Below, in pieces: positions 22,401 through 52,084 of a stretch of DNA of 52,465 nucleotides (its first letter is position 1; the number at the start of each line of letters is the position of its first letter). Under the pieces are notes generated by a model, which had not been told where the DNA came from, did not search any database, and was given only the letters and a program-made list of their open reading frames with translations. Source of the stretch: a virus (taxonomy: Duplodnaviria; Caudoviricetes); the IMG/VR virus record IMGVR_UViG_3300045944_000450, positions 1 to 52,465 of that record. One strand, written 5' to 3'. The translations under genes were made by a program, and so were the position numbers.

Positions 22401-22957
22401 CCTCGCGGAGTCTGGCGCATAAAGCCGTGCCGCTCGGTAAGCTGGCTGAGAATGTCCCTACGGACCCGGGCCAACTGGAACCGTTACGTCTCACGCCGGA
22501 ACAGTATGAACGCCGTATTGTGCTGTCAGCGGGCAATGAAGTACAGGCACAGAAGCTGGGCCTGGAGCTTCCGGCTCATCTGATTGACAAGTTAGTGAGT
22601 GATCTCAGCCGCGAATATAACGCCGTGCCTCCGAAGGAGGTCCGCAGCCTGACCAATTTTCTGAACTGGGCCGCCGAGCAGGACCACTATAAGGCACAAA
22701 CGTCCGGGCCGGGTGAGGGGAAAGAACAGCTCTTCCAACGGGCGATTTTCTTCTATCGGCAGTTGGGGGAACAGCTCTTACTCCAGCAAGACAAGAGCCT
22801 GCTGACTCAGGCCGGGGAAAGTCAGATTATGGCCACGATACGCCAATTACCGCTGGCGCAACGGCCAGGGACAGCCCAGAGCATGCGGACAGGGTTAAGC
22901 GAGGCAGCCACGCGGACGCAGAAGCAACTAGGCTTACACGTCGGAGCACCGAAGTAA
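16490..22957 (+). CDS. 2155-aa internal virion protein: SLT lytic transglycosylase, ART-PolyVal-like domain, helical C-terminal region
   Basis: LES, GAQGVMQLMPGTA, NIEGGVRYL, AGYHAG at ~16620-17000; VYHGT, GPGIYFT, AYLNITNPF, GYDGI, YIAFSPEQV at ~18190-18900. Confidence 0.88.
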   Translation: MAETAYTDDFSPLFRSTRDAMDGARWDQTLAVGRRPTQVQTRQDVSTLVREIAPKYGVDPRLVEAVIGLESGGQADVISRKGAQGVMQLMPGTAKRFGVTDPLDPAQNIEGGVRYLAWLRDQFPGRTDLQLAGYHAGEGAVRNAGYTIPQTHDGNMSTGQYVATVLRRYTPTLPGEEGRPVLDVRDALARQSVREGTPGPTLHVTTDPSQLSMQARGGKPAQGLPGEGGIPPLDLSRETQQHVMDLPGTRLTVETDMGNLMARTAGQPTALQPGQRPFDAAHPALEPGLVEDRAGRIVGGIATGAVGMVENLLQSVVAGENLVGLTRPAVPGMTDPMGVELLLPPIKGLEKSIAPRLGGEAPDLVDKLANGLGTSLASLLPGAAAQRFLRGVSTVAPRLARLGGAVTSGLIEAAGEAGGVYEQMAPIVGEGEASKRALTSFAANAVLVTATDKLGIFGEEGRLLRRALAGAISNGAQEAMQYDIERRQLWVPANHQAADGLKAAGWIQEGARLVKPFAAKDMGEAALIGMLIGGPAAAAVGAVAERELPQIRQVVEQEQRAVATQIPDTLVKDPEGQPLRVYHGTPAPFDQFRIDTAVENSLYGPGIYFTDNPQVAEGYSKGQARGPTAPDLLVSPEAAREAIANVPDLLNSERRAMAELGDNELAETIANMAERGYAIDAPNLISTFAGQPNIRPAYLNITNPFDINADLSAAQVRALLGQMPETTRPVLEGLTQEWEARGWQGVNADDVYDLLTRAFGGDKAAANRFLQQQGYDGIAHTGGQVSGGESHQVYIAFSPEQVIPAFSIDAALQAVQQPDTPPPGVEPSTWQRWGAYLTNLLPDIQPGPGGRGGFLGGERGSLGTGAPTLRMGAEGLTPERYRTPSGGWRIPLRDMPSQELDLKDFIVQQGGIKLAGEELRGELEAVISRKETGLVGLQNNASGMSLQAMAETAAEQGFIPSADKEALLQALDRNIVQGHPVPSVYATGRIALLDDPYVSAGYQAVLDAVEAVRGRTEEQVAGVRHRRAVHAEAAALIEEGAFSHDDIREIFPNTTLNDTMASALVQSLNTIGEEMADAAQRYLDAGARVGSHEEASLQELMALLAELDPIRLGVSAAQSRGLGILNDPLSGYTQFLNNLHRALETAPDKTMAQIAKNILAAKPQQALTKEELAKNPERLAEIFAAQREMIERFQASPLPFQLEQQEPGNLALFEQRTPEQQALVEAAYTPEGDARTPQEWDQVFRAQAQARLLEAWQAGEFERQRARDAIYEDMVNLNQQREAARQRAMEDWSAEDRARDEAYQQAREVWARQAVERADARWREGMRDYRQFQEDLRQGYQGRQLDLPPREGEPRREPTQLLLLDEYREVQQALTDYREGRATEAQQDLLDAVLRPWTATQEQLKLPRMKNLIASMWPGLRPWDVTEERLQAQLQELARAQAQAPAQLPVMKALMESTRPGFEAYFRELMYNAWLSNPSTHITNFVSNLGVTAWALPERYLAQWYQDDASGVPRGEASAMLYGLVHGIQDAWTLAYRSFKAGQPLSGLGREYTREPVATAQNMGLNPESAFGKFVNFFFEYIGLGSGGRLPSRALMASDEFFKMLNYRAELNALAYRDAVRHGYEGTAFAEHVTKVISSPQLSQIQEASKTFSIIQTFQNALTPGGVGEFMQGISNYSPRMFGTEQRFPVGTTILPFVQTPSNIARYAFERTPLGVFLGTYHDDLRAGGERADLAQAKIDLGTFAMVGLAGLALSGRLTGRGPEDRDLREIWLQTYRPYSVKLPTGQWVSLDRFEPAGTLVKMIGDLVQVAGEANVETWTKATLAPIVIFLKGVTNATYFQSLSEFFDIMAPDFASKDQEWGAKLQRFGRQKGAGMLIPSSLMAATARFLDPVERDAQSLVDALYTRIPGWKDDIPARRTLGGEKVLFGSGIQPDIFANFVGAYSPVKLGSGKMLLADQEMLKNKMSIDKPSRSLAHKAVPLGKLAENVPTDPGQLEPLRLTPEQYERRIVLSAGNEVQAQKLGLELPAHLIDKLVSDLSREYNAVPPKEVRSLTNFLNWAAEQDHYKAQTSGPGEGKEQLFQRAIFFYRQLGEQLLLQQDKSLLTQAGESQIMATIRQLPLAQRPGTAQSMRTGLSEAATRTQKQLGLHVGAPK

Positions 22958-23823
22958 TGACGCAAGCGGCAATTATCCCTTGGACCTTCTATATTGCTGA
23001 CAGTTTCCAGACTGTTTTCCCCTACCCCTGGCGCATTGGCGCCGCCAGTGACCTCGAGGTGTACCTGGCGGATATTCTCACGACGGCGTACACCGTGACC
23101 AACGTCGGTAATGCCACGGGCGGTACGGTCGTGTTCTTCACACCGCCACCAGCGGGGCAGATCGTCTTCATCCGGCGGCATACCCCGCAGACGCAAGAGA
23201 CGGATTACCTCAACCATGACCCGTTTGCCGCTGAGACGCACGAGGCCGCCCTCGATAAGTTGACGCGCCTGGTGCAAGACCTCTACGAGCGCATCGCCCG
23301 GAGCCCGGCGTTTGGCGTCTCCGCGCCCAATGTCCTGCGCAATCTGGTCTTTCCGGGGCCGGAGCCGCTCAAGCTGATCGGGTGGAGTGGCAGCGGGACC
23401 GAACTCACGTTGTTTGATCGGGCACTCACCTCGGTTACGGTCCCGCCGAGCACTGGCGAGGTGCATGGTGTGAGTACAGTGACGGTGCCGAGCGTTGGGG
23501 GCGCAGCGTTTCTGACCGCAGTGGCAGCGATTCCGGCTGGCGTGCAGGTAAAGGGGGTTGGATACAGGTGTGTCACGGCTTTTAGTACCGAAAACAGTTT
23601 AGCATCGCTGGATCTGGGGGGTATGGGGCTCGAAGCGGGCTGGGGACGTGGCCTGGGTATCGTGGCGAATGCGGTGAACAACATCGGGCAGATGCGGGCG
23701 GATATGCCCCATACGTCCACGGCCCATGACATTCTCATGGTAGCGAATCCTCCAGGTGCCCGTTTTGGGAGCAGCGGGCTAGCGCGGCTTTCTATTTTCT
23801 GGATGACGCTGACGCCGTTATAG
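22957..23823 (+). CDS. Tail fibre anchor (T7 gp17 N-terminal-like adaptor)
   Basis: TVFPYPW, DLEVY, YTV...GGTVVF, IRRHTP.TQ..DY, HEAALDKLT; no signal peptide. Confidence 0.85.
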   Translation: MTQAAIIPWTFYIADSFQTVFPYPWRIGAASDLEVYLADILTTAYTVTNVGNATGGTVVFFTPPPAGQIVFIRRHTPQTQETDYLNHDPFAAETHEAALDKLTRLVQDLYERIARSPAFGVSAPNVLRNLVFPGPEPLKLIGWSGSGTELTLFDRALTSVTVPPSTGEVHGVSTVTVPSVGGAAFLTAVAAIPAGVQVKGVGYRCVTAFSTENSLASLDLGGMGLEAGWGRGLGIVANAVNNIGQMRADMPHTSTAHDILMVANPPGARFGSSGLARLSIFWMTLTPL

Positions 23824-23826
23824 GGA

Positions 23827-24480
23827 TCAAAGCAGATGCCTCCATGTTTTGCCTCGGACAATAACCGAGATATTACTTTTTGTGCAGGCATAGTCGCGCG
23901 CAAGTGTCTGCAAAGAATCGCCTTGTTGATGACGTGCACGTATTGTACGCACATCGTCATTCGTTAAGTGAGCCGCATGATGCTTTTCGCCTCGTCGGAT
24001 CAAATGAGGAAATTTCTTCATTGCGTTGTTTGCGGCGCGCGCAGTTCTGTTGTCACGCATAGCATCAGCCATATTGTCTTTTTGGGTGCCTGGATGCAGA
24101 TGGTCAAAGTTGACGCACGAACGATTGTGGCAGTAATGACAAGACTGCAATGGTTTCAGAAGGCGCTTGTTATGATGCAGTTCCCAGGCAGCACGATGGG
24201 CGCCAATCTTTTTCCCCTCAGAATATGCTGTGAACTCGCCATACCCATTAGGGCTGCAATACCCTTGCCATGGCCAACAGCAATACGGACAGTCTTTCCC
24301 ATGGCTACAAACCTGGACAAATCGTGTAAAGCGTATGGCTACGGGCGTGGTTCGATATTTACTCGAACAGGACGGCGAGCAAAACTTGTTTTTGCCACAG
24401 CTATCACGAACCGGCGTCACACGAAACGACTTCCCGCATTCCTGGCAGACACATGGAACGTATTGTGCGGCTTTCGGCAT
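23827..24480 (-). CDS. Free-standing HNH homing endonuclease
   Basis: N-terminal CxxC/CxxxC zinc motifs, CWPWQG, GYG, AHRAAW, CHxCHNRSCVNxDHL..GT..DN, C-terminal HTH; GAGGGAG RBS. Confidence 0.9.
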   Translation of the reverse strand: MPKAAQYVPCVCQECGKSFRVTPVRDSCGKNKFCSPSCSSKYRTTPVAIRFTRFVQVCSHGKDCPYCCWPWQGYCSPNGYGEFTAYSEGKKIGAHRAAWELHHNKRLLKPLQSCHYCHNRSCVNFDHLHPGTQKDNMADAMRDNRTARAANNAMKKFPHLIRRGEKHHAAHLTNDDVRTIRARHQQGDSLQTLARDYACTKSNISVIVRGKTWRHLL

Positions 24481-24601
24481 GCTTCCACTCCCTCTGTGGT
24501 CCCTACAAGGTGTGCTACGGCAACAGGTAGGGTTGCCTGGTTTCGCGTCGCGAACGCTAGCCGTAACACGTTGAAGTATAACATGGAAGGAGCTTCCCTG
24601 C

Positions 24602-26734
24602 ATGCGTAGAGTGCCCTGGGTAGTTACGTTCCTCTGTGTCCTGGTGTGGCTGCTGCCTTCTTGGGCCTACGCCGCCAATGAGACGGCGACAGACCCGGTG
24701 GCGATGGTGCGGCAGCGGATCGGGGATCTCGTGGGCTCGTACATCACGAGCGGCTGTCTGCCGACGGTGCCTGCGTCGTCGCTGACCCTGGCGGCGTTTG
24801 CCTGTGAAGGGGCGGTGGCCGAGGGACGCAGTTCGATTCCGGTGAGTCAACCTGCGGCAACGGTCGGGCCGCTCAGTGCCACGGCGGGCAGCTACTGGAT
24901 TGCTCTCTACAAAGACCGCACCACGACGGTGGGCGGGTGGACGCACCAGTTGGGGACACACTATCTCTGGCAGGCCAGCGCGACGCAACCCGCCGATCCG
25001 GCAGGCGGGACGGTCATTGCCCAGGTGACGGTGGCAGGCTCGGTCATTACGGGGGTGGCCGATTACCGGCAGCCGGTGAGCTATGTCCAATCGGGCGTCT
25101 ACGATGTCACCGATCCCCTCTATGGGGCCCGGTGTGATGGCACCACGCATGATACGACGGCGATCCAGCAGGCCCTTGCTGGCGCCCGCACCGGCGCTGT
25201 GGTGGCCCTGCCGCAAGGCACCTGCCTGGTCAACGCACCGCTGGCGATCACCAAAGCCCTGGCCCTCCATGGCGCTGGCATCGGGCAAAGCATTCTGAGT
25301 CAGGCCACAGCGGCACAAGCGGTGCTCACGAACAGTGCTAGCAACGTTCGCCTCCAGGGCTTCACGGTGCGTCATCAGGGAACCCCGGTGGCCGGGGGCG
25401 ATGGCATTGTCATGACCTCCGCCAGTGGGGTCGATGCCGTCTACCTCGAACACGTTGAAGCGCTGCACAACTGGCGGGGCTTTGTCCTGGGCTGTGCCTC
25501 CTACGGCTGGGGCAGTCATCTGCGGGCGCAGCAGAATGACTCGCACGGCTTCGAGTTTACCTACGGGGCGGCCTGCGGGACGGCGCAATGGGACATCGGC
25601 CATAGTCTGTCGCAACTCAATAAAGGCACGGGCTTTGCGGGCGTCAACACGGCCTCGCCGAATGGCATTGGCCCGTGGCTGACCCAGACAGTCAGCTTTG
25701 GCAATGAGTTTGGCGGGTATTCGTTTGATGGCAGCGCGGGCCATCCGATTAACGATCTCCGGCTGAGTGGGGTCATTAGTAGTGGCGATAACCGGGGCGG
25801 GATTTTTCTGGATACCTACGGGACCGGACATCTCCTGACGGATCCCTGGGTCGAACTGGCGGGGCAACTCGCGGGGCTCCCGCAGGGCTCGGCAGGGACC
25901 GCCTCAGTGGCGAGTGGCACGGGGCATGGGCTGCGCGTCACGAGTAACACCCTGACAAGCGGCGTCACGATTACGGGCGGGCGCTACTGGAATAACTCCT
26001 GGAGCGGCGTCTCGATTGATGCGGCCTATGTGACGCTGACGGGCGGAACCAGTCTCGGCAATGGGTTAGCGCATGATGCCGACCTCTCACGCCGGGCCGG
26101 GGTCCACATTGGCAATTCCGGGGTCAGTGTGAGTGGGCATACGTTTGGGTATCTCAATGCGCCGGCGACGCTGCATCATATCCACCTGGGCGGCACGCTG
26201 CTGGATCTGGCCATTGGACAGAACGCCTATCAGCCTGGGCTCAGTAACGCGGATTTTATCCATGGGGCCGATGCGGTCCTGGCAACGACGGTGCAACCGA
26301 TCATGGCGGCGGGCCTCATGGTGCATACCGGTACGCCTGAGGCGTTTGCTCTGGGTCTGGTCGATGCGAATGTCGGGGCGCCCAATGGCCTCAAGTTTCT
26401 CCGGGCGGCCGCGGGCAATCTGGAAATCCTCGGGGCCGATGCCACCACGGTCTTGTCCCGGCTCTCCAATACCGGCACGCCGAGCTGGCCGGCGCGGCGG
26501 GGGCAGCTCACCATTGCCGATGCCAATACGACGGGCGTGGTCACGCTCAGTCCGAGCGAGCCCGATGCGAGTTACTTTGTGCAACTGACCGCCAGCGCCG
26601 CGGCTGGTGGACCTGCATCAGGGGCCTATACCGTGGGGGGCGTGGTGAAAACGTCATCAACATTTACTGTAACCGTGACAGCCGCCCCGGGGGCTGGCAA
26701 AAGCGTCACGTATGATTGGTTTGTGCATCGCTGA
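24602..26734 (+). CDS. Tailspike-like parallel beta-helix protein (pectate lyase 3-type) with signal peptide
   Basis: MRRVPWVVTFLCVLVWLLPSWAYA leader; VTDPLYGARCDGTTHDTTAIQQAL...LPQG motif; C-terminal FTVT...VTYDW domain. Confidence 0.8.
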   Translation: MRRVPWVVTFLCVLVWLLPSWAYAANETATDPVAMVRQRIGDLVGSYITSGCLPTVPASSLTLAAFACEGAVAEGRSSIPVSQPAATVGPLSATAGSYWIALYKDRTTTVGGWTHQLGTHYLWQASATQPADPAGGTVIAQVTVAGSVITGVADYRQPVSYVQSGVYDVTDPLYGARCDGTTHDTTAIQQALAGARTGAVVALPQGTCLVNAPLAITKALALHGAGIGQSILSQATAAQAVLTNSASNVRLQGFTVRHQGTPVAGGDGIVMTSASGVDAVYLEHVEALHNWRGFVLGCASYGWGSHLRAQQNDSHGFEFTYGAACGTAQWDIGHSLSQLNKGTGFAGVNTASPNGIGPWLTQTVSFGNEFGGYSFDGSAGHPINDLRLSGVISSGDNRGGIFLDTYGTGHLLTDPWVELAGQLAGLPQGSAGTASVASGTGHGLRVTSNTLTSGVTITGGRYWNNSWSGVSIDAAYVTLTGGTSLGNGLAHDADLSRRAGVHIGNSGVSVSGHTFGYLNAPATLHHIHLGGTLLDLAIGQNAYQPGLSNADFIHGADAVLATTVQPIMAAGLMVHTGTPEAFALGLVDANVGAPNGLKFLRAAAGNLEILGADATTVLSRLSNTGTPSWPARRGQLTIADANTTGVVTLSPSEPDASYFVQLTASAAAGGPASGAYTVGGVVKTSSTFTVTVTAAPGAGKSVTYDWFVHR

Positions 26735-26745
26735 GGAGAGCCTGT

Positions 26746-27237
26746 ATGCGGGTGTCTGGTCGTGCCCTGGGAATAATGCTCCTAGTGGTGGTGCCTCTGG
26801 TCGCCATACTCGTATGGGCGCAGACCATCCACAAGGAGACCGTGGTCTGGGATTTTGTGAATGGGTTGAAAAGTCGCGGCGTGTGGGTCGCCACCGTCGA
26901 GGGCAGCCCTGGCGAGCCTGGTATGGGGGGCGAGGCGTGTCAGGCGCGGAATGTCTGGATCAACCTCGCCGGAGGAGGGGCTGATATTGTTGTGGGGGCA
27001 AGCCCGATTGCGATTCTCGGATCCAATGATACGCGCTGCCAGGCTATCATTCGCAACAAAGGGGGGGCGTCCATGCGCTGTCTGCCGACCAATCAGGGAA
27101 CGCCGAGCGCCAGTGTGGGCCAGGAATTTAGCGCTGGAGAGTTTCTCCTGATGGGCACATCGAGTCGTCCTGGCTGGCAGTGTATTCGCACGACAGGGGC
27201 CAATACTCTGGTCACGATTGTTGAGGAGACACCCTAA
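26746..27237 (+). CDS. Putative exported beta protein
   Basis: GAGGAG RBS; MRVSGRALGIMLLVVVPLVAILVWA leader; 4 Cys in the mature part. Confidence 0.75.
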   Translation: MRVSGRALGIMLLVVVPLVAILVWAQTIHKETVVWDFVNGLKSRGVWVATVEGSPGEPGMGGEACQARNVWINLAGGGADIVVGASPIAILGSNDTRCQAIIRNKGGASMRCLPTNQGTPSASVGQEFSAGEFLLMGTSSRPGWQCIRTTGANTLVTIVEETP

Positions 27238-29195
27238 TGCGTCGTTCCTCGGTTTGACCCTCCCCATAGCTACAGCTAGGGGATTCCCGACGCCACCTCA
27301 CGGTGGCTCTCGTGGCCCAGTCCAGGCCCGGAGGAATGATGCATAGCTATCACACCCATAGCCCATCGTTCCGCCTTACCGACCCGCTTCGCTCGCCACG
27401 GTGTCTAGAGAAGCGCACCGATGCGGTTCAGTTCGGGGTGTTGACAGAGATGTTCACCTGTCTGTTCAACCTATGGCCGCCTGTACGGCAAGTGCTCGTA
27501 GGTCAACAGAGAGGGGCAAACCATCCGACACGGCTGACACAACACGCATGGCAGCAGATTAAGTGTCTGACTCTCTGGCGTTTCACATTTTACGTGGTGG
27601 ACTCCCCACCACAACGCCTTATGCGAAGTATCAAAGAGCTGCTGAAAGTGTAGCACAGTATGCCAAACAGAAACAGTAAACAAAGCCTAAACAAGCAGCA
27701 CAAAAACCTTAAACAAACCCTATTCGGCCTTCAGCCGAACGCTTCCTTGACCCCATCGCTAAAGCAAGGGGGTTGCGGAAGCGGTTTGCTCGTCCTCCTG
27801 GCGCTGGCGGTGCTCGCCGGCTTCCTCCTGGGACCGCGCCCCGTGCCGGCGCTGCTCTGGTTTTCCAGCGGTGGGGGCGGGGGAAGCGGTGGGGGCGGTG
27901 GCGGGCCAGTGACGGATGCCGACATTCCTGACCTCAACACGCTCTCGACGGGCCTGACAGGCGGGCGCTGCGTGGAAACGGATGCCCTCGGCTTTCTGAC
28001 CACTACAGCCGCGGCCTGTGGTGTGGGGGGGAGCAGTGGCGCAGGCGAGGTGATCGAGATCACCACGACGTATACCGTACCTGCGAGTGACTTTGTGGGA
28101 TCGAAGACGCTCGCGGTCAGCGCGGGAGCTTTTACGATCACCCTCACGTCTGTTGCCTCCCAGCCGGGCATGGGCACCTTTATTACGATTATTAATTATA
28201 GCGATGGCCCCGTAACCATTGCTCCAGATGGGCAGACCATCAACGAGGACATTACACCACTTGTCCTCCCTGGCTCAACCCCGCAAGCACCAAGTTCGGC
28301 ACGGATCGTCTCCACGGGGACAGCCTACATTGCCAGTCTCGCGGGACAAGATTTGCCGCTGAGTAAACTGCCCATCATTGAGAGCCAGACATTGCTTGGC
28401 CGTACGACGGGTGGCACAGGATCGACGGAAGTCCTGACCACGCCGCAAGTCAAGACTATGCTGGCCATTGACCAGGTGGATAATACCTCTGATGCGGCCA
28501 AACTGAGTGCAGTGGGTGTCTTAACCAATAAGCTGGTGCTCGACCGGGTCGTGACTCCGACCGTTGCCAGCAATACCATCACGCCCGACCTGGATCTTGG
28601 CGATGTTTTTACTCTTGATGCGATCTCCGCCAACCTCACCATCGATGCGCCCATCGGCACCGGGGGCAAGCCGTTTAACGAAGAGTGGATCATCTTTCGC
28701 TTCAAAAGCTCGACGCCTCGCACGCTCACTTGGAACGCCATCTTTACCGCTGAACATGGCATCCCCCTGCCCACGGCAACGACCGGCGATGGCACAACGG
28801 TGGACCGCATCAAATTCGTCTACAACTCGACTACAACGAAGTGGGGGCTGGTCGCTTCAACGATTGCGGTCATTCGGGACGTGACGACCTTGGCCTCTGG
28901 GACCACGTATACCTGTAATGCGGACCTCGCGTCCGCCTGTGAGATGCAGATGACGGGAGCCGCCGGCACACTCACCATTGCCGCGCCGACCGGCACGCCC
29001 AGGAATGGCCAGCAACTCATGTTCAGGATGCTGTGTACCAATGCCCAGTCTCTTAGTTTAAGTAGTATATTCATTGGGAGCCCAAACGTGCTTATTGGTA
29101 GCCTCATGTGCCCGGCAGACCTAACCAAGTGGTATGCCATTGGCGCTATTTATAGTTCTGTTTTGAATAAATGGCAAATTTACGCAACTAACTAG
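27237..29195 (+). pseudogene. Signal-peptide-bearing tail-fibre-like gene interrupted after codon 5 by an IS200/IS605-type element
   Basis: Coupled ATG 27237 (MRRSSV) is in frame with LVLLALAVLAGFLLGPRPVPA resuming at ~27789; poly-Gly linker; two tandem C-terminal LTI.AP.GT...FR repeats. Confidence 0.75.
27254..27787 (-). mobile_element. Non-autonomous IS200/IS605-family element with no recognisable tnpA/tnpB; the ~27787 boundary is uncertain by about 3 nt
   Basis: Related subterminal hairpins at both ends (CCCCATAGCTACAGCTAGGGG and CCCCATCGCTAAAGCAAGGGG); - strand ends GGAATCCCC...GGGGAGGGTCAA; removal of 531 or 534 bp restores the host frame. Confidence 0.78.
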
Positions 29196-29230
29196 TACTA
29201 ATTTTATTTGTTCCTTAGAAGGGAGGCTCT

Positions 29231-29764
29231 ATGCGGCTTCGTGTATGTGTCGTTCTCCTGGGAGCACTCGTAGGAGTTCTGCCTACCCTGGGATGGGCTG
29301 AGTGTACCAGCGCACAAATTTTCACCGAGCTTTCGACTGATCCCCAAACACTCGGCTATGCCACCGCCTATGGTCAACCTATTACGCAGAACAGCAGCGG
29401 GAATGATCAGGCGGTGCTTGAGGTGATTAACCTGATTCGCCAGGGTGCGGCGTATCAAATCCAGCGCACGCTCGTCCCCGCGTATGAAGTGGCGGCGCAG
29501 ATGGACCCAGCGGAATTTAATGCCCTCACCAGCGTCAAGCAGCAGCAACTGGTCGCGCTGTATGCACCGCTCCAAGTCGATCTCTCTAGTACACGCATTC
29601 GGGATATTCTGTTTAATGGCACCACACCGATCTTTCCCAATCCCGGGGCCACCAAAAACAATATCCAGGCCATTGTGAAACGTCCAGGGTCCCGGGCAGA
29701 AGTCCTCTGTGGACGCATGCTCACCCTTGCTGATATTTCTCTTGCGATAAGGAACACCCAATAA
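29231..29764 (+). CDS. Putative exported protein
   Basis: GGGAGG RBS; MRLRVCVVLLGALVGVLPTLGWA leader. Confidence 0.8.
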   Translation: MRLRVCVVLLGALVGVLPTLGWAECTSAQIFTELSTDPQTLGYATAYGQPITQNSSGNDQAVLEVINLIRQGAAYQIQRTLVPAYEVAAQMDPAEFNALTSVKQQQLVALYAPLQVDLSSTRIRDILFNGTTPIFPNPGATKNNIQAIVKRPGSRAEVLCGRMLTLADISLAIRNTQ

Positions 29765-30273
29765 TGCAACGAGTTGTGTTCCTCTTTATGCTCTGGCTTG
29801 TCGCAGGTGTCCCGTGTGCGCAGGCGGTCAGCCTTCAGTACGCCATTGGCTCGTCGACGACGCTGCTCTCGACCGATCTCAATGCTCTTGCCAACAACGG
29901 CTACAGCGTGCCCTCCGCCACCTACGACAATACCATCGGTCAAGCAGGCAACGGGGCTACCCTGTGTCGCTTTGAACTCTTCGTCACCTTTGCGGCCAAT
30001 CCCACGGCGAACACGGCGGTCGTGGTGTGGCTCCAACGTTCCTATGATGGCACGAACTTTGAGTCTGCCCCCTCCAGTTCTATTGGTGCGGGCGCCTCTC
30101 TTCAACTCTCATTTCCGGTGAACAGTGGCATGACCGCGACACGTGGCGTTATCGACACCCCGTGCCCTCCAGGCAAATTTAAAGCCTCCCTCAAAAATGA
30201 TGGAACAGGGCAGGCGTTTACCGCGAGTGGCCATACGCTGAAAGTGACGCCCGTCACGCTCCAGGGGAACTAG
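29764..30273 (+). CDS. Putative exported beta-sandwich protein
   Basis: TAATG coupling; MQRVVFLFMLWLVAGVPCAQA leader. Confidence 0.8.
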   Translation: MQRVVFLFMLWLVAGVPCAQAVSLQYAIGSSTTLLSTDLNALANNGYSVPSATYDNTIGQAGNGATLCRFELFVTFAANPTANTAVVVWLQRSYDGTNFESAPSSSIGAGASLQLSFPVNSGMTATRGVIDTPCPPGKFKASLKNDGTGQAFTASGHTLKVTPVTLQGN

Positions 30274-30275
30274 CG

Positions 30276-31190
30276 ATGCGTCGAGGTCTCTGTGTCGTAG
30301 TGCTGCTGTGGCTGTGTACGCTCGCGGCCGCCCAGACGTTCCAGACCCCAGGACTCCGCCCTGGTCCTGTCGACTTACAGCGCCCCGTCAACCTCCAGCA
30401 TCCTCTTGCCCAGGGACTTGTCGATTGGTGGCGCGTCGTGCGACCGCTCACCGGAGGGCAGTCCTGGAAAAGTCTGACGTCCGGGACGACTGGCGTGCTC
30501 ATCAACATGACCACGCTTGACACCACGGGCTTCACGTATTCCACGAGAGCCCCTGGCGCAGAGGGTGAGCTACGGTTCAATGGCACCAACAGTCATGTCA
30601 CGGTGCATACAGGGACCTTCGTGGGCAATCTTGCAGCATTTTCTGTCGTTGTAGGCTTTCGTACCACCACCACCGCTAGAAGTGTCCTCTATCAAGAGCG
30701 TCATGCCACGAACGGTTGGACCATCTTTATGGCGGTCAATGAAGATACCGCAGGCGACCTTACCTGCATAGTCAACGATGACGCCTCCGTGATTGGTACG
30801 CTCCAAATATCTGGCGGGAGTCCTGCGGTGAATGACGGCAAGTTCCATTATGCGGCCTTTGTCCAGACCTCCAAATCCGCCAGGGAACTCTTTTTTGATG
30901 GCGTGTCCGTCTCGACCAATAGTACGACCATCGGCACGATTACCATGTCCCAACGCGCCTTTGGTTCACGTCCGGCTGGGTCAGCCCTCTTCCTCAACGG
31001 TGCCATCAGTGAGGTGATGGTGTACAACCGTGCCCTCTCCGCCCTCGAAGCGCGGATGCTCTATGATTCAGCGCTCCAAGGCCATCCGCGCCTGCTCAAT
31101 CGTCCCTCACCATTCCAGGCGTGGATGGATGTGCTCTTCCGACAATCGCAGGGGAAGCTCTGGCCCTTCTTTCTGACACCGCCACAGTAA
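30276..31190 (+). CDS. LamG/concanavalin A-like lectin domain protein with signal peptide
   Basis: MRRGLCVVVLLWLCTLAAA leader; LRFNGTNSHV, VNDGKFHYAAF, LFFDG, LNGAISEVMVYNRALS. Confidence 0.85.
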   Translation: MRRGLCVVVLLWLCTLAAAQTFQTPGLRPGPVDLQRPVNLQHPLAQGLVDWWRVVRPLTGGQSWKSLTSGTTGVLINMTTLDTTGFTYSTRAPGAEGELRFNGTNSHVTVHTGTFVGNLAAFSVVVGFRTTTTARSVLYQERHATNGWTIFMAVNEDTAGDLTCIVNDDASVIGTLQISGGSPAVNDGKFHYAAFVQTSKSARELFFDGVSVSTNSTTIGTITMSQRAFGSRPAGSALFLNGAISEVMVYNRALSALEARMLYDSALQGHPRLLNRPSPFQAWMDVLFRQSQGKLWPFFLTPPQ

Positions 31191-31205
31191 GTAGGAGCAT
31201 GAGTT

Positions 31206-34200
31206 ATGGTGAAATGTGTGCTGGGATGTATGCTGGTCCTCTTCATCTGGACGATTCCTGGAGAAGCCTTTGACTATTATATCTCCCTCACGGGGAGTGA
31301 CACCGCCTTTAATTGTGTAGACTCCAGGAATCGTATTGATCGCCCCAAACGCAACTTTCATGGAGCGAATGGGGCGATTGCCTGTCTCGTGGCCGGCGAC
31401 AGACTCTATGTCCGTGGCGGAAACTGGGGACCAAACGATTATATTAATGGCCAATCCTCCCCCATTCTCAAAAGTGGGACCTCCTGGACCAATGCGATTA
31501 CGATTGAAGGCTATCCTGGCGAAACCGCTGTACTCAAACCTGGCACAGCCGTAACAACCGTCGTCAATATTCCCAGTCAATCCTACATCATCGTGAAGAA
31601 CCTGCGCCTGGATGCGACCAACGCTGCTCATGGCACGGATTGTAGCAGTGGCACCTGTCAGAGCTACGGTACGGCGATCTCCATGGGCTCGCCTGGTGGG
31701 GGGCATCACATCCGCATTGAGAACTGTGATGTGGGTCCTGCCTTTTCGACCGTCATGTTTCTCACCAATGATAGCGAGGTCATCAATAGCAAACTCCATG
31801 ATTCAACGCGGAGCTACGGGATTTATGCCCCATGCGCACGTTGCATTATTGACGGGAATGAATTTTATAACAATCATGGCCATGGCATTCAGCTCTATTC
31901 TGCCTCCGATAAGACGCCTACACACGATTCCATTATCCGCAATAACATCGTGTACAACAATGGTTCTACCGAGCGGGGGATTCCTGCGATAACGGTTGGC
32001 ACGGGGGACCGTATTAAAATTTATAATAACCTCGTGTATAACCATGCCTATAGTGGGGGCATATACATTGGAACGAATACCCCTGTGAAGGATGTGGAAG
32101 TCTATAATAATACGATTTATAACAATAATGGCTCAGGCATCAAACTGGGCGACAGGTCAACGGGAGCCAAACTCTACAATAATATTAGCTACAACAATTC
32201 TGTCAGTATTGAAAACTCGGGGAGTGCGGGCGCCACGACTGGCACGAATCTCTGTCAGCATGCCCAATTTGGCTGTACGATTGTAGCCAATCCGCTGTTT
32301 GTTAATCCTACTGCCACGCCGCCCAACTTACAGTTGCAGTCTGGAAGTCCTGCCAAAGATGCAGGCACCACCCTTGCGCTTGTCACAACGGACTTTGCAG
32401 GACCACCAAACTATACCAGTGTGCCACGGCCTCAACCCCAGACGGCTGCTGGCAAATATGATATTGGGGCCTATGAGATTGTCCAGGCAACGGGACCTGT
32501 CGCGAATACCAATCCGATCTATGTTGCCAAGACAGGCTCGGATAGTAACAATTGCTTTGCCGCTGAGAGTCAGAGCACTCCCAAGCTGACCATCGGCAGT
32601 GCCCTCAGTTGTATGACGGTTGCTGGCAAAAAACTCTACATCAAAGCAGGTACCTACGTTGAGGCACTCAACAGCCCTATCACTGGTGGCGCCAGTTGGA
32701 ATGCTCCCACGGTCATCAGTGCCTTTGACACGGATGTGGTGATGATCCAGCCCGCTTCGGGCAGTGCCGTGCTCACGCTCAATGGGACCAGCACCAACAT
32801 CTATAAATACACTTCCTTTGAAAAACTCATCTTTGATGCGACCAACACGGATGCAGGGATCGTGCAAGGTCCAGCAGCTTTTGTGTCCTTTATTCGCTAC
32901 CTGAATGGCCAGGTGCGGAATGCGGCCGTCGGTAGTGGCATCAGCGGGCTGCATGCGGGCTCTGAACTGGTAGGCATGTATGTCCATCATAATGCGACCA
33001 ATGGCCTCGCGTTTTGCGGCCAGGGTGTCACCATTCGTGACTCAGAGATGTCGTTCAATGGTAGCTACGGGATTCAACTCTATGACCCTGGCACACCAGG
33101 CTGTGCCACCAATACCGCTATCTTTAAGAACCGCATCCATGATAATCAGAGCAACGGTGGCGTCCTCCTGGGGGGTGGGGATAACGTCCAATTTTACAAC
33201 AATCTCGTCTACGGGAATGTGGGCGGGGGCATCAAACCCGTGCGCTATGGCCCGCCGACGAACGTGAAGATTTACAACAATACGATCTACAACAATACGG
33301 CTGATGGGATCATCGTGGCTGGAGATGCCACGGGCACGGAACTAGTCAATAATATCCTCTACCTCAATCCTGTGGCGATTACGGACAGCGGTGTAGGGAC
33401 CATTATGACCACGAATCTCTGCGGAGCGCCTGGCGTAGGCTGCGAGAAGGTGGGTGATCCACTCTTTGTCAACGCTGGTGCTGGCAACTTTCAACTGCAA
33501 GCGCTCTCGCCTGCTCGCAATGCAGGTACGACCAAAACACTCGTGGCAACCGACTTTGCTGGCGTAGCTCGTCCACAACCACCGAGTCCGACTGGCAAAT
33601 ATGACATCGGGGCGCATGAGTTTGTCGAAGAGATACCGCCAGAAGAGGGGAATACGAATACCATTTATGTTGCGAAGACTGGCACTGATAGCACCGCAAC
33701 TGGTCATTGTATTGTCGCTGAGAGCGAGTCCACTCCCAAGTTGACTATTGCCAATGCCTTGTTGTGCATGACGGTCCCTGGCAAGAAACTCATGATTAAA
33801 ACGGGCACCTACGTAGAGAACATCGAAACCAAAACGCAACCGATTACTGGGGGGAATGGTCCCTCGTACACGGATGCCACGACGATCCAGGCGTTTGGCT
33901 CAGATATTGTGACGATTCAACTCCCCGCAGGCGGTGCGGCGGGCATCGCACTCTTTCTCAACAATAGTGATCATCATCTGCTCTTTAAAAACCTTATTTT
34001 TGATAGCGCGAATAAGGCGTCGAGCAACGTGATCGCTCTTATGCCTGGAACGCACCATATTCGCTTTGAAGGATGTGAGGGTAAGAATACCCTCACAGGT
34101 TTTGAAGTTGTCTTTATTAATCAGGCCAACAACATCGAGTTCGTCCACAGCACCTTCCACCATAGTGCCACCGATGCCATTTTCCTCAAAGGGCCCCTTG

Positions 34201-34811
34201 ATGGCTTTTTGTGTGAATACTGCACCATTCACAGCGCGGGCGATGCCGGGATTTCCTGGAATAGCACGGGGGTCAAAACCAATATCGTACTCCGGGAAAC
34301 CGTGGTGAACGGCAACACGGCGGAGGGTATTGATGCTGCGACTAGCACCGGGGCACTCATCCAGAACGCGCTGGTCTACGCCAACGGTGGGATTGGCGTG
34401 CGCATGCGCACCGGGGCGAACAACCTGAAGCTCTATAACAGCTCGGTGCATGGCAATACGGGCGTGGGCGTGCAGTGCGATGCCGGGTCCACGGGCGTCG
34501 AAATTAAAAATGTCATTTCCTACGCCAACGCCACCAACATTGTGAACAACTGTGGTGCCACCACGGCAACGAATTACACGACGGATCCCCTATTTATCAA
34601 TCCTGGCGCCGGCAATTTCCGTCTCTCCAACGGCTCAGGCGCGATTAACACGGGGACGCCACTGCCAGGGTTGACGATTGATCTGGACGGCGCAGTGCGT
34701 CCCCAGGGGACCTACGATATCGGGGCCTATGAGCGCGATCAACTCACGCCACCCACGCAGGACGTGATTGCGCTACGGCGGGCGTTCTGGCAGATGGAGC
34801 TTCTGTACTGA
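31206..34811 (+). CDS. 1201-aa protein with three tandem right-handed beta-helix modules and a signal peptide
   Basis: MVKCVLGCMLVLFIWTIPGEA leader; three units, each opening Y(I/V)xxTGxD and closing PLF(V/I)N...RPQ...YDIGA(Y/H)E; NNxxYNN ladders. Confidence 0.85.
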   Translation: MVKCVLGCMLVLFIWTIPGEAFDYYISLTGSDTAFNCVDSRNRIDRPKRNFHGANGAIACLVAGDRLYVRGGNWGPNDYINGQSSPILKSGTSWTNAITIEGYPGETAVLKPGTAVTTVVNIPSQSYIIVKNLRLDATNAAHGTDCSSGTCQSYGTAISMGSPGGGHHIRIENCDVGPAFSTVMFLTNDSEVINSKLHDSTRSYGIYAPCARCIIDGNEFYNNHGHGIQLYSASDKTPTHDSIIRNNIVYNNGSTERGIPAITVGTGDRIKIYNNLVYNHAYSGGIYIGTNTPVKDVEVYNNTIYNNNGSGIKLGDRSTGAKLYNNISYNNSVSIENSGSAGATTGTNLCQHAQFGCTIVANPLFVNPTATPPNLQLQSGSPAKDAGTTLALVTTDFAGPPNYTSVPRPQPQTAAGKYDIGAYEIVQATGPVANTNPIYVAKTGSDSNNCFAAESQSTPKLTIGSALSCMTVAGKKLYIKAGTYVEALNSPITGGASWNAPTVISAFDTDVVMIQPASGSAVLTLNGTSTNIYKYTSFEKLIFDATNTDAGIVQGPAAFVSFIRYLNGQVRNAAVGSGISGLHAGSELVGMYVHHNATNGLAFCGQGVTIRDSEMSFNGSYGIQLYDPGTPGCATNTAIFKNRIHDNQSNGGVLLGGGDNVQFYNNLVYGNVGGGIKPVRYGPPTNVKIYNNTIYNNTADGIIVAGDATGTELVNNILYLNPVAITDSGVGTIMTTNLCGAPGVGCEKVGDPLFVNAGAGNFQLQALSPARNAGTTKTLVATDFAGVARPQPPSPTGKYDIGAHEFVEEIPPEEGNTNTIYVAKTGTDSTATGHCIVAESESTPKLTIANALLCMTVPGKKLMIKTGTYVENIETKTQPITGGNGPSYTDATTIQAFGSDIVTIQLPAGGAAGIALFLNNSDHHLLFKNLIFDSANKASSNVIALMPGTHHIRFEGCEGKNTLTGFEVVFINQANNIEFVHSTFHHSATDAIFLKGPLDGFLCEYCTIHSAGDAGISWNSTGVKTNIVLRETVVNGNTAEGIDAATSTGALIQNALVYANGGIGVRMRTGANNLKLYNSSVHGNTGVGVQCDAGSTGVEIKNVISYANATNIVNNCGATTATNYTTDPLFINPGAGNFRLSNGSGAINTGTPLPGLTIDLDGAVRPQGTYDIGAYERDQLTPPTQDVIALRRAFWQMELLY

Positions 34812-35215
34812 TGGCTGCCACCCCTCCGCCCCCACCCCCCCGCAATGGCAATGGCCGCGAAAGCTTGCACGTCAGCCTGGGCAGTAAAACGGTCGGCATC
34901 CAGGCCGCGTCGCTGACGACGGTGTTACTCTTGATCGCGGGCTGCGTTGGAGGCTACCTCATTTATACCGCGATGGATCACCGCCTCGAAGCCATCCTGG
35001 CTGGGCAAGCCCGCACGCAAGTGGTGCTGGAAGCCAATCGCGCGACGATTCTCGACGCCCTGCACGCGCAACAAGCGTTTATCGTCGACCAAGCGCACCA
35101 GGGACGCCAGCGGCACGAGCAGCAGGCCGAGCTGTTGCGGCGGCTCGTGCTGATTCTCGAACTGCCGCCGGAGGTGCTCGGGGGCGCCACGCCGCTACGC
35201 CCGCCAGGGCCGTAG
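34811..35215 (+). CDS. Single-TM coiled-coil protein, possibly holin-like
   Basis: TGATG coupling; hydrophobic segment LTTVLLLIAGCVGGYLIY; last gene of the late operon. Confidence 0.55.
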   Translation: MAATPPPPPPRNGNGRESLHVSLGSKTVGIQAASLTTVLLLIAGCVGGYLIYTAMDHRLEAILAGQARTQVVLEANRATILDALHAQQAFIVDQAHQGRQRHEQQAELLRRLVLILELPPEVLGGATPLRPPGP

Positions 35216-35619: not shown

Positions 35620-37110
35620 TTACAAAGGCAGGACTATTTGATCGTTAGGAATAATTGTTTGTGCTGCACTGAGCACTTCAAGACTCATAGGGATTTCTAA
35701 GCGTTTGCGGTCTTCTACTATCTCTTTTATTGTTACGATACTTATCTTGTCATAACTTCGTCCCATATCTTCGTGCTTATATTGGCCGGCACCTTTGGCT
35801 TCGCTCATCATAGGACGTGTAGGAGCTTCTAAAGTTATGAGAACTGCCATGGCCGCTTCCTCTCGCTCCATATCGCCCCGAAGTGTAGCAATATCGCCGC
35901 GCTTAACCCCTCCAGATTTGACTTGAAAGATGATCTTTGCATTGTCCGTCCTACCAGTCTTGAAAAAAGCACGCGCGTCAATACCTGCATCGGCACCTTT
36001 CTTTTCATTGATGATTGCACGGTTATTTGTGTAAGTAAGTACAGCCCATTTTTCAAATTCTTTGCGTAGTCGGTCATCTTGCTTGTGTGCGAGGGCTTGT
36101 GCGGAAGCCATATCGCGCGGAATGCCGTCAGTGCGTATGTGCGCCAATACGTCTTTACCAAAAGATGCTTCAAGCCGCCTAAGCACCAGTGAAATAGACT
36201 GATAAGTAATATCTATACCTATCCATTTGCGCTTCAAATTCTCGGCGACAACAACAGTCGTTCCACATCCACAATAGGCATCTAAAATAAGATCGCCTTT
36301 GTTTGTGGATGCCCTAATAATGCGCTCTAACAAGGTAGTCGGTTTTTCCGTTGGGTAGAGTTGCTTGATCGGAGGAACGCGGCTGATGTCCCACACATCG
36401 TCCATTGCTACACCAACTGACTCGCCTTCCATTTGCGATGGCTGACGCTGTCCTCTAGAATCATGACTGGATATGATTTTTGCATTCCCGAACCGTTTTT
36501 TCGTGGCGGGAGAGCGCTCCACAAAGAGCGTGTTAAATACGCGCTCAGAGTCGTCGGATTTGCTGTAGAAGAAAATAACATCGTGGTTGCGCACGAATTG
36601 ACGCTGAATAATGGACCACTTGAGATAATGCCAGATGATCTCGTTACGAAAATCTCCGCCGGTCGTGACAAAGATGGAATCTAATATGAGTTTGAGATAG
36701 TGGCTTGCGGTAGGGTCGCAATGCAGGTAGAAACTGCCGGTCGGCTTCAAGACGCGATGAATCTCTGTCAAACGCAATGACATACTTACGAGATACGCTA
36801 GTAAACTGCCTTCACGCAAGACGCTGTGCAATCCTTTTATAAGCTCTACCAATTGAGCCTGAAAGCGTCCCTCGGCATTATCTATAATCTCACTATACCC
36901 AGTATTAGCATGATCATCCCACAGCCAGGTATCAATAAAAGCTTGTGCCTGGGCACGGTCTTCATTACCAATATTGTTATAGATTTGATTGTAATTTCGT
37001 TTGGAATTGAATGGTGGATCAATATAGCACAGGTCTATTGATTCATCCCTGATATACCTGCGCAAGACATCAAGATTGTCACCATAATACAGACGGTTGG
37101 TGCTTGGCAT
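35620..37110 (-). CDS. N6A/N4C DNA methyltransferase (beta class) fused to an Mrr-like nuclease domain
   Basis: GDNL, YIDPPF, YPTEKP..LLERII, DAYCGCGTT; C-terminal FEKWA...DAGID...QVKSG. Confidence 0.9.
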   Translation of the reverse strand: MPSTNRLYYGDNLDVLRRYIRDESIDLCYIDPPFNSKRNYNQIYNNIGNEDRAQAQAFIDTWLWDDHANTGYSEIIDNAEGRFQAQLVELIKGLHSVLREGSLLAYLVSMSLRLTEIHRVLKPTGSFYLHCDPTASHYLKLILDSIFVTTGGDFRNEIIWHYLKWSIIQRQFVRNHDVIFFYSKSDDSERVFNTLFVERSPATKKRFGNAKIISSHDSRGQRQPSQMEGESVGVAMDDVWDISRVPPIKQLYPTEKPTTLLERIIRASTNKGDLILDAYCGCGTTVVVAENLKRKWIGIDITYQSISLVLRRLEASFGKDVLAHIRTDGIPRDMASAQALAHKQDDRLRKEFEKWAVLTYTNNRAIINEKKGADAGIDARAFFKTGRTDNAKIIFQVKSGGVKRGDIATLRGDMEREEAAMAVLITLEAPTRPMMSEAKGAGQYKHEDMGRSYDKISIVTIKEIVEDRKRLEIPMSLEVLSAAQTIIPNDQIVLPL

Positions 37111-37262
37111 AGGCGTCTCTCCAAAAACTCCTGCCGACTCAGTATAGGTTCTGCGGGGTCTGTTTCTCTCTTCCAGTATACTCTATTCTTCTCTAGCGGC
37201 ATAGCGTAAAGAGATCGCTTGTCACGCGCATGCACGCACTCATTCACTCTGCATATGAGCCA

Positions 37263-37291
37263 TTGCGCTTCTCATGCATGCATATTATACT
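37263..37291 (+). promoter_or_regulatory. Sigma70-type promoter candidate
   Basis: TTGCGC-17 nt-TATACT upstream of the 37413 gene. Confidence 0.5.
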
Positions 37292-37412
37292 TAGATCTAC
37301 CCGACTCATACGCCCCTCTCTGGCCATGCCACCAGAGTCTTCTGTTGTCTCATAATAGGAGTAAAAGGTATGTATATGGTATGAACATACCACGGAGAGA
37401 AAGGACGAAGCC

Positions 37413-37892
37413 ATGCAAGAGTATATTCAGCGTCTTCAAGCAAGAAAGAGAGAGATAGCAAAAAGAATGAAAGACTTGGAAAAGTACATTCGTGAAGTTC
37501 AACAGCTTGACAATGAATTGCAGCATATTGATGCCATATTACATATGCATGTAAAAACTGAGGAAACATTAGAAGAACCCACTGGACAAATCCCCTATAT
37601 TCATATACTATATAGTCATAATAACAGGAAAATTCCTTCTGGCATAGCCAGACATATTCTGGCTCTTTTTGCTGACAACAACAAACCTCTCCCCATCAAT
37701 ATGATCCATCAACGCCTCAAAGAGCAAGGTATCAACACTAGCATGTCAGGCGTCAATACTGCTCTACGTCGAAACACGGTTTTTTTTGAACAGATAGAGA
37801 AGTTCTTTTGGAGGCTGAGGATAACAGGCCATCAGGAGGTGAGCCAAGAAGAGAGCCAACCAACGCTAGCAGAAGAGGTAGTGGCACAATGA
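37413..37892 (+). CDS. Coiled-coil plus winged-helix-like protein
   Basis: AAGGA RBS; N-terminal heptads; ILALF...PLPINMIHQRL...VNTAL...F.....WRL. Confidence 0.65.
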   Translation: MQEYIQRLQARKREIAKRMKDLEKYIREVQQLDNELQHIDAILHMHVKTEETLEEPTGQIPYIHILYSHNNRKIPSGIARHILALFADNNKPLPINMIHQRLKEQGINTSMSGVNTALRRNTVFFEQIEKFFWRLRITGHQEVSQEESQPTLAEEVVAQ

Positions 37893-37930
37893 TACGATAG
37901 ATATATAGTTGGTAATGAAGAAAGTGGTGG

Positions 37931-38005
37931 GGCCGCGTGGGCAAGAAGCAAGCCGTCCGACTCGCAAATCGGAAGACGGGAGTGCAACTCTCCTCGCGGC
38001 CTCCA
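37931..38005 (+). tRNA. tRNA-Cys-like gene with an 8-nt anticodon loop, possibly a pseudo-tRNA
   Basis: Acceptor GGCCGCG/CGCGGCC plus T-CCA; D stem GGC/GCC; anticodon stem TCCGA/TCGGA with loop CTCGCAAA; T stem GGGAG/CTCCT with loop TGCAACT. Confidence 0.7.
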
Positions 38006-38143
38006 CTGCATACCTTGCGTCCCCAGTGTTGGAGCACTGAGGACGCGCAACCAGGAGACCCCGCAAAGGGTACTGAGTTGCACCCGCTAGGGCAATTCAG
38101 TATACCCTGTGTGCGGGTCTCTGTCCAGAGGGAGACTCGTACC

Positions 38144-52004: not shown

Positions 52005-52084
52005 CATCCCGCCCTGACGCACGCGCACCTCACGACTACGACCACCCATCATCTGCTGTGCCACTGTGCTTCAGGAGGGGAGCC

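Follow-up and report, generated by a model that had tools for sequence, protein, structure and literature searches.

We analysed a linear IMG/VR virus record, IMGVR_UViG_3300045944_000450 (52,465 bases, estimated completeness 88%; "the window" below means this whole stretch), and in particular a block of seven genes, here S1 to S7, that follows the tail-fibre anchor of the phage. By its gene content the window is a temperate T7-like viral contig. The late module on the plus strand is T7-like, with a terminase fragment, portal (PHROG 332, 8.6e-119), scaffold or protease, major capsid protein, tail tube A and B proteins (tube B, PHROG 376, 1.4e-154) and internal virion proteins. RecT, Bro-N, a helix-turn-helix protein and, at the right end, an integrase-like fragment (51926-52465, read from the translation) are the reason why we call the phage temperate. 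Judged by its proteins, it stands far from any cultured phage; its tube B protein matched 211 records, every one at less than 60% identity. Records of the sequencing runs in which the contig occurs give their source as soil metagenome. The features of the block and its borders, with predicted leaders and cleavage sites, are as follows.

22957..23823 (+): fibre anchor or adaptor, 288 residues, leaderless; gp17-type tail-attachment domain at residues 12-115, conserved C-terminal domain at about 185-286.
24602..26734 (+): S1, 710 residues; leader 1-24, predicted cleavage AYA/AN (24/25); beta-sandwich N-domain at about 27-170 with a Cys52-Cys68 pair, then a pectate-lyase-type beta-helix.
26746..27237 (+): S2, 163 residues; leader 1-25, predicted cleavage VWA/QT (25/26), then the conserved N-peptide QTIHKETVVWDFVNG; four cysteines in the mature part.
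27237..27257 (+): open reading frame (ORF) of six codons, MRRSSV then a stop, with a strong GAGGAG box.
27255..27785 (no strand assigned): intervening element of 531 nucleotides (nt) between the n-region and the hydrophobic core of the S3 leader.
27660..29195 (+): S3, 511 residues from the ATG at 27660 or 482 from the TTG at 27747; hydrophobic segment LLVLLALAVLAGFLLG, glycine-rich linker, fibre-like body, six cysteines.
29231..29764 (+): S4, 177 residues; leader 1-23, predicted cleavage GWA/EC (23/24); mature Cys25 and Cys160.
29764..30273 (+): S5, 169 residues; leader 1-21, predicted cleavage AQA/VS (21/22); Cys68 and Cys134.
30276..31190 (+): S6, 304 residues; leader 1-19, predicted cleavage AAA/QT (19/20); LamG/ConA-like domain.
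31206..34811 (+): S7, 1201 residues; leader 1-21, predicted cleavage GEA/FD (21/22); three tandem right-handed beta-helix modules, 22 cysteines.
34811..35215 (+): protein of 134 residues with one transmembrane segment, translationally coupled to S7; no Pfam family.

Leaders were called by a rule of our own: a net positive n-region, an uncharged run of 10 or more residues that contains a 9-residue window averaging at least 2.0 on the Kyte-Doolittle (KD) scale, and small residues at -3 and -1. The rule flags all seven genes of the block after the gp17-type anchor. Elsewhere it flags 2 of 46 curated genes, which encode the membrane protein at 34811 and, on the minus strand, a 438-residue protein (48431-49747); among non-gene ORFs of at least 60 residues it flags 9 of 230. 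Counted by reading frame, seven of the eight plus-strand ORFs that start within 24602-31206 are flagged; the exception, 27303-27653, lies in a non-coding gap and is probably not a gene. Upstream of 24602 no ORF on either strand is flagged, the anchor at 22957 included. The initial annotation had proposed Sec-type signal peptides on every gene after the anchor and none on the anchor or the core virion proteins, and these counts agree with it on both points.

The leaders are 19-25 residues long and strongly hydrophobic (h-region KD 2.9-3.4). Shine-Dalgarno boxes before the leader-including starts are clear for S1 (GAAGGAG), S2 (GAGGAG), S4 (GGGAGG) and S7 (AGGAG) and weaker for S5 and S6. None precedes the GTG farther downstream that a gene caller took as the S1 start, which argues against true starts lying downstream of the hydrophobic segments. 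A twin-arginine translocation (Tat) reading was rejected. The Tat motif is S/T-R-R-x-F-L-K, in a long n-region followed by a weakly hydrophobic h-region; S1, S6 and the ORF at 27237 have RR at positions 2-3, but no more of the motif is seen, the leaders do not exceed 25 residues, and their h-regions are far from weakly hydrophobic. A lipobox scan returned only IAGC inside the transmembrane segment of the 34811 product, which was not accepted as a lipoprotein, and Pfam found no peptidoglycan-hydrolase domain in S1-S7. The seven genes are packed tightly or overlap on the plus strand; promoter-like sites (10 versus 7.1±2.8 expected) and terminator-like sites (12 versus 11.1±3.1) are at chance level.

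Several of the proteins belong to known families. S1 matches Pfam PF12708 (5.3e-10), S3 matches PHROG 3030 (3.8e-13), S6 matches PF13385 (4.6e-13) together with PHROG 8510 (virion structural protein) and 24534 (tail fibre protein), and S7 matches Beta_helix (PF13229, 4.4e-38 over five stretches) and NosD (1.9e-17). The folds first assigned from the translations are in this way upheld by Pfam as beta-helices for S1 and S7 and as LamG for S6; the tail-fibre-like label of S3 holds only through homology to the C-terminus of a relative's spike. No Pfam or PHROG family was found for S2, S4, S5 or 33 S5-family members, and the nearest Atlas clusters of S4 are viral. The structural model of S1 is confident only at residues 45-250 or so; it renders the leader as a helix, leaves the cleavage region disordered and gives the beta-helix a low predicted local distance difference test (pLDDT) score. 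With the whole model, Foldseek returned the tailspikes of cyanophage Pam1, Sf6 and LKA1 as well as polysaccharide enzymes. The N-domain modelled alone reached pLDDT 82.7 and had no match in the PDB at E ≤ 0.001; its weak best hits, the phage 1358 receptor-binding protein (E 0.14) and the cyanophage A-1(L) fibre, are a lead only.

Within S7 a beta-helix module of about 390 residues is present in triplicate; copies 2 and 3 start with similar N..IYVAKTG.D motifs, and all three end in a conserved (K/T)YDIGA(Y/H)E. Among its homologues, 34 of 41 have a hydrophobic N-terminus followed by an (A)TYYV..TG.D..C-type mature start, and many lie on contigs of 76-107 kb. S7 has the look of a secreted enzyme of cellular origin that the module has taken up.

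The mature proteins are rich in cysteine. S1 to S7 have 6, 4, 6, 2, 2, 1 and 22 residues, respectively, or 43 in 3038 amino acids (1.42%), and the count is even in six of the seven. In the 13 leaderless virion proteins there are 24 in 6600 (0.36%), and in the three internal virion proteins none in 2991. The earlier statement that most of the mature proteins contain several cysteines stands as to composition, with the qualification that S6 has one and that the motifs quoted as examples (CSSGTC, CQHAQFGC and CGAPGVGC) are all in S7.

Homologues keep the leaders, another point on which the initial annotation could have failed. In one related locus (L002) all four genes after the anchor open with leaders, and in a second (L003), whose contig stops inside the first spike, that spike is likewise leader-bearing. 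The S1 leaders diverge between the window, L002 and L003, whereas the junction (A/Y)A/ANET (AWA/ANET in L002 and L003) is conserved, as are the 140 residues that follow it. Among 5.8 billion proteins searched there were 22 in which the S1 N-domain is fused to varied distal domains, and a metagenome scan added 11 loci. In the resulting set of 32 (S1 of the window, 21 of the 22 proteins and 10 loci), 28 have a hydrophobic N-terminus; one leaderless member, P0020, has an endosialidase-chaperone C-terminus (PF13884). In the S4 family, 16 of the 17 other homologues have a variable leader before a conserved A/(E/D)C junction, the exception being the shortened P0082. Single-protein scans of viral contigs with S1, S7, S3 and S4 gave no match. 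The second spike of L002 (776 residues) has the mature start of S2 of the window, then a helix 49% identical to that of S1 and an end domain 41% identical to the C-terminal 229 residues of S3, which also has homologous parts in the spike of locus L046. Shuffled modules behind fixed N-termini are typical of docked spikes, and with the tailspike matches of the S1 fold and the chaperone-type end of P0020 they resemble what receptor-binding proteins do.

In three families the leader and a pair of cysteines go together. The S5 family has 572 cluster representatives at E ≤ 0.001; in the best 150 of these, 28 are over the hydrophobicity threshold and 122 under it (median length 170 versus 149 residues), and the leaderless members start directly at the conserved MATT.KYL..TLLSTELNSLANN. 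An alignment of 33 sequences has cysteine at both 68 and 134 in all 10 leader-bearing members and in none of the 23 leaderless ones. From the best 150, after dropping one with a gap and 11 with long N-terminal extensions, we counted 21 with leader and pair, 5 with the leader without the pair, 3 with the pair without a leader, and 109 with neither (21/26 versus 3/112). The Fisher value for this table, 3e-17, is not a probability, since the rows are not independent (kinship is ignored). Two of the three rows with a pair and no leader are leaders missed by the threshold or truncated by the gene call. In S4, Cys25 and Cys160 are invariant in 13 aligned homologues; within viral contigs, both are present in 3/3 leader-bearing proteins and neither in 17/17 leaderless ones, which begin at the mature N-terminus. 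The S1 N-domain has the Cys52-Cys68 pair in 27 of 28 leader-bearing members, and neither cysteine in the two complete leaderless ones, P0020 and L036 (two further sequences were left undecided because their starts are uncertain). Because most S5-family members are leaderless, and the S4-S5-S6 trio is leaderless in many viral contigs, the leader appears to be a derived trait on ordinary phage proteins. The only explanation known to us for a link between leader and cysteines in three families would be relocation to an oxidising compartment.

The module recurs elsewhere. The block spike-S4-S5-S6-S7-membrane protein is found again in L046 (guanine-plus-cytosine (GC) content 0.50) and L049, and L092 has S3, S4, S6 and S7 homologues around a leader-bearing S5 gene; S6 homologues lie directly downstream of S5-family genes in L046, L047, L049, L060, L074 and L092. 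In L046 a protein with an N-terminus similar, by eye, to that of the 34811 product comes after the S7 homologue; the 134-residue membrane protein itself may be a lysis or membrane component. The leader rule flags 4/8 neighbours in L046 (two more have hydrophobic starts with no basic residue), 4/8 in L049 and 0/8 in L092, a GC-rich locus with unreliable gene calls. In the remaining 73 loci with an S5-family gene it flags 28 of 525 neighbours, near the background rate of the window. The gain of leaders is, as far as sequences can tell, a module-wide change. Leaderless S4-S5-S6 trios lie near portal, capsid and tube genes in L086, L107 and L118. Three leaderless S4-/S5-family proteins found no match by tblastn in 50,697 phage records, and PHROGs gave the trio neighbours and other adaptors no tail annotation beyond one weak sheath hit. 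In the leaderless relative L118 (3674-4964), two glycosyltransferase genes (PHROG 1962 and 14945) stand between the trio and the tail tube genes. In the window, GC drops from about 0.61 to 0.52-0.56 across 28-36 kb (S3-S7 and the membrane protein); this, together with the value for the L046 module, suggests that the cassette may move between phages of different hosts.

The anchor may link the block to the tail. Its residues 12-113 match PHROG 1640 (tail protein, 6.2e-35) and, in the PDB, the N-terminus of the Dpo31/Dpo36 tailspikes (1.5e-7); it is 76% and 66% identical to its counterparts in L002 and L003, respectively, and is conserved over its whole length (mean column identity 83%). An HNH-like gene on the minus strand (23827-24603; Pfam hits under the curated cut-offs) separates it from S1, with an int-alpA RNA motif (24501-24567, minus strand, 42.3 bits against a gathering score of 35.8) directly upstream of that gene's likely internal start. 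The last 100-130 residues of the anchor are homologous to a leaderless protein directly upstream of S1-type spikes in L034, L037, L039, L040 and L041 (phmmer 1.5e-4, 2.9e-16 and 5.8e-15, with shared motifs in the alignment; hhalign probability 92.5%, E 5e-7 over 100 columns, for L034, L037, L039 and L041). The N-terminal parts of these upstream proteins differ: 160-167 residues in L034 and L037 and 222-300 in L039, L040 and L041. The adaptor C-domain is paired with an S1-type spike in 8 of the 12 loci with upstream sequence. Two parts kept together while the outer ends change are what would be expected of two docking surfaces, which is not proof of binding. A complex model of three copies of anchor 110-288 with three of S1 25-170 scored 0.00, which is evidence neither way.

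We propose that, in a clade of temperate T7-like soil phages, the outer module for adsorption and depolymerisation has come to consist of Sec-exported proteins with disulfides. S1-S7 would be made with N-terminal leaders, pass SecYEG unfolded and be cleaved behind AXA-type sites, except that S3 may keep its hydrophobic segment and glycine linker as a tether. The exported proteins would fold outside the cytoplasm, where the newly gained cysteine pairs, to judge from their link with the leader, could form disulfides. Capsid, tail and the leaderless gp17-type adaptor would meanwhile assemble in the cytoplasm, as homology to other podoviruses suggests. Lysis would merge the compartments, and the exported spikes could then dock on the C-terminal domain of the waiting adaptor, S1 by its beta-sandwich N-domain and S2-type proteins by the QTIHKETVVWDFVNG N-peptide; surplus enzyme, and probably S7 too, would act as free polysaccharide-degrading proteins. 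Export with oxidative folding is very probable, because the leaders are kept, they diverge over conserved mature N-termini, and they go with a cysteine pair in three families. On the complete chain, from export to docking on virions at lysis, we are evenly divided. Two-compartment morphogenesis proper, in which a whole tail-fibre module gained leaders and cysteine pairs together and its spikes join the adaptor at lysis, we advance tentatively, as slightly short of an even chance. The initial annotation had suggested the same route, by way of the periplasm. Its export and oxidative folding are well supported by the comparison of the three families; attachment to particles finds indirect support in the conserved N-modules and the pairing with the adaptor C-domain; and the name "periplasm" is an assumption about the envelope of the host.

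The same leaders could serve proteins that never join a virion: a free set of exported enzymes and adhesins made up of beta-helix polysaccharide lyases or hydrolases, a LamG lectin and small binding proteins. It might be released before or at lysis to strip capsule, extracellular polysaccharide or sheath so that progeny escape, or be a conversion trait of the lysogen, with the 288-residue anchor alone as the fibre. This, the main rival, we consider possible, if doubtful; the initial annotation had named a secreted adhesin or depolymerase set of the lysogen as its alternative. The best fit is S7, a typical representative of secreted cellular beta-helix proteins; most of its homologues bear a leader, and many lie on the long contigs described above. 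In T7-like genomes lysis genes lie at the position where this block ends with a membrane protein. The L046 module is not beside recognisable tail genes, the GC drop over 28-36 kb would be expected of acquired cargo, and exported phage lysis enzymes are known (the fOg44 lysin, PMC8878798). Against a free set speaks the docked-spike pattern, in which S1 and S2 keep their N-modules conserved together with the anchor while the distal domains shuffle, and so does the pairing of adaptor C-domain and S1 N-domain, which is seen in adaptors of differing architecture. The anchor, moreover, is conserved like a partner and unlike a variable receptor-binding end, and the S4, S5 and S6 families are leaderless in most phages, which would make little sense for dedicated secreted enzymes.

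Retention at the membrane or cell surface by uncleaved N-terminal anchors, where the proteins would mask or destroy the receptor and so exclude superinfection of a lysogen or infected cell, is unlikely. Cleavage is favoured because six of the seven leaders have short h-regions and classical small residues at -3 and -1 directly before the conserved mature N-terminus. The genes, moreover, belong to the late structural operon, where they share one strand and stop codons overlap start codons. What speaks for retention is that S3 and the L046 spike have long n-regions, a transmembrane-like segment and no clear AXA site (in S3 a glycine-rich tether comes next), that the phage is temperate (integrase fragment at 51926-52465), and that a further leader-bearing protein is encoded in the early region. 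Least likely is an artefact, whether true starts downstream of the hydrophobic segments or chance hydrophobic N-termini of GC-rich ORFs. Gene callers did pick later starts for S1 (696 residues) and S7 (1193 residues), and the leader predictor is a home-made rule, not SignalP; but Shine-Dalgarno boxes precede the upstream starts and none precedes the alternative in S1, the background of the rule is low (9/230), the leaders are kept in dozens of homologues with a conserved junction, and they go with cysteine pairs in three families.

Several observations weigh against export followed by docking. The adaptor C-domain was not seen in four of the 12 S1-type loci (L033, L035, L036 and L038), and neighbouring genes of a tail module can remain linked by descent without mutual binding. 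The L046 module has no recognisable tail gene within 7 kb upstream, S7 belongs to a cellular secreted family and not to a virion family, and searches of Pfam, PHROGs and phage records established no function for the S4, S5 or S6 families in any phage. The compartment that would hold the exported spikes until lysis is assumed. Among the window proteins scanned (35 with Pfam, 19 with PHROGs) no endolysin or holin was recognised; lysis genes may sit in the absent 12% of the genome. The sole muralytic-looking sequence in the window is the N-terminus of a 2155-residue internal virion protein, which resembles a lytic transglycosylase by eye. We know of no precedent in a tailed phage, and literature searches returned, in the text they covered, no account of Sec-exported fibres or spikes in tailed phages. 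Finally, S3 appears interrupted.

This last point modifies the initial annotation, which had joined S3 into one gene reconstructed from 27237. The gene is not intact: the ATG at 27237 opens the six-codon ORF, in appearance the n-region of a leader cut in two, whose hydrophobic core picks up again in frame 531 nt farther on. Neither the ATG at 27660 nor the TTG at 27747 has a Shine-Dalgarno box. Excision of 27254-27784 or 27255-27785 would yield MRRSSVLLVLLALAV..., and the former leaves U at the upstream end and G as the last removed base; in group I introns U ends the upstream exon and G is the last intron base. The RNA of the element folds with a z-score of -3.64, and 0/100 shuffles fold as well. 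Rfam assigned it to no family (two chance microRNA hits only, E 0.46 and 1.9), no protein family was found in it, and no further copies were found in the window or the collected loci or in a motif scan of viral contigs. A clean target duplication was considered and rejected: the 7-nt direct repeat CGGTTTG flanks the element, but excising 532 nt shifts the frame. Contigs from one RNA library cover only 27308-27607 of a 1.7-kb stretch, in which the uncovered parts prove nothing, and no contig was found to span the element from end to end. Sequences diverged from 27308-27380 and 27509-27642 lie in further soil contigs, between flanks unrelated to those here. These points hint, weakly, that the RNA may be mobile or expressed on its own; the element may be an intron of a kind not recognised, a mobile RNA or a gene for a non-coding RNA.

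Searches for the host gave distant matches. The portal had a match in 1/401 genomes sampled from each of two phyla, at 38% identity in that of genome G002 (on a contig that stops before the fibre genes) and at 30% in that of genome G001, and in 0/5 further individual genomes; a scan of genome contigs with the S1 N-terminus gave no match. The transposase of an insertion sequence (IS; DDE_Tnp_1 and SWIM) in the window has relatives at no more than 59% identity, scattered over Dehalococcoidia, Acidimicrobiales, Acidobacteriota, Planctomycetota and archaea. Beside this IS, within 35620-39373, lies a low-GC (0.45) DNA methylase fused to an Mrr-type nuclease domain, and a tRNA-like sequence with a four-base anticodon (cgca) overlaps the start of the IS. 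A GNAT acetyltransferase gene (9934-10455) stands between the tail tube A and B genes. In the early region, a nucleoside 2-deoxyribosyltransferase-like protein (46128-46604, minus strand; 2.1e-29) may point to DNA modification, and the leader-bearing 438-residue protein of 48431-49747 (MPTSAPARLALALLLCAPALTGAAG...; no Pfam family), among the early and lysogeny genes, may be a lysogenic-conversion protein.

If the proposed route is true, a clade with exported spikes would add a new morphogenetic route for tailed phages, which according to the textbooks assemble wholly in the cytoplasm, and would explain how phage adhesins could use structural disulfides. The leader with its gained cysteine pair is a sequence signature by which more cases may be found in metagenomes, and it bears on annotation, where a gene with a signal peptide is often set aside as non-structural. 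Spikes and depolymerases of soil phages that are stabilised by disulfides may also prove unusually robust in engineering. Even as free enzymes, S1-S7 would be a set of depolymerases and lectin encoded by seven genes of a late phage operon and exported by Sec, for which our searches returned no earlier description.

The nearest known arrangements are the branched adaptor-tailspike systems of T7- and SP6-like podoviruses (SP6, K1-5/K1E and the Klebsiella KP32 type), whose components are cytoplasmic in the known cases. As in these, the first protein of the window has a gp17-type tail-attachment N-domain, and the spikes combine conserved docking-type N-terminal modules with exchangeable beta-helix depolymerase domains; unlike them, the spikes and accessory proteins all bear Sec-type leaders and have conserved cysteine pairs. 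In P22, purified tailspike completes heads in vitro, both partners being cytoplasmic and without export. Spikes there can bind finished particles spontaneously after lysis, as the last step proposed here needs, whereas the spikes of the window are leader-bearing and would be exported. The receptor-binding pIII of filamentous phages has a Sec leader, contains disulfides and enters the particle beyond the cytoplasm, much as we propose for the window spikes, but inovirus particles form during extrusion through the envelope and at no stage in the cytoplasm, and the window encodes the terminase, portal, HK97-type capsid and tail tube of a tailed phage. S7 shares its leader, its ATYYV..TG.D..C-type mature start and its repeated modules with cellular secreted beta-helix proteins (Beta_helix/NosD); unlike theirs, its gene ends a phage tail-fibre block, and homologues take the same place in L046, L049 and L092. 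Among late proteins of tailed phages, Lys44 of Oenococcus phage fOg44 is exported by Sec before lysis (PMC8878798). The late proteins of the window appear to share Sec-type leaders with such signal-peptide and signal-arrest-release endolysins, and differ from them in having no muralytic domain, in being encoded by seven genes and not one, and in their tailspike, fibre or lectin folds.

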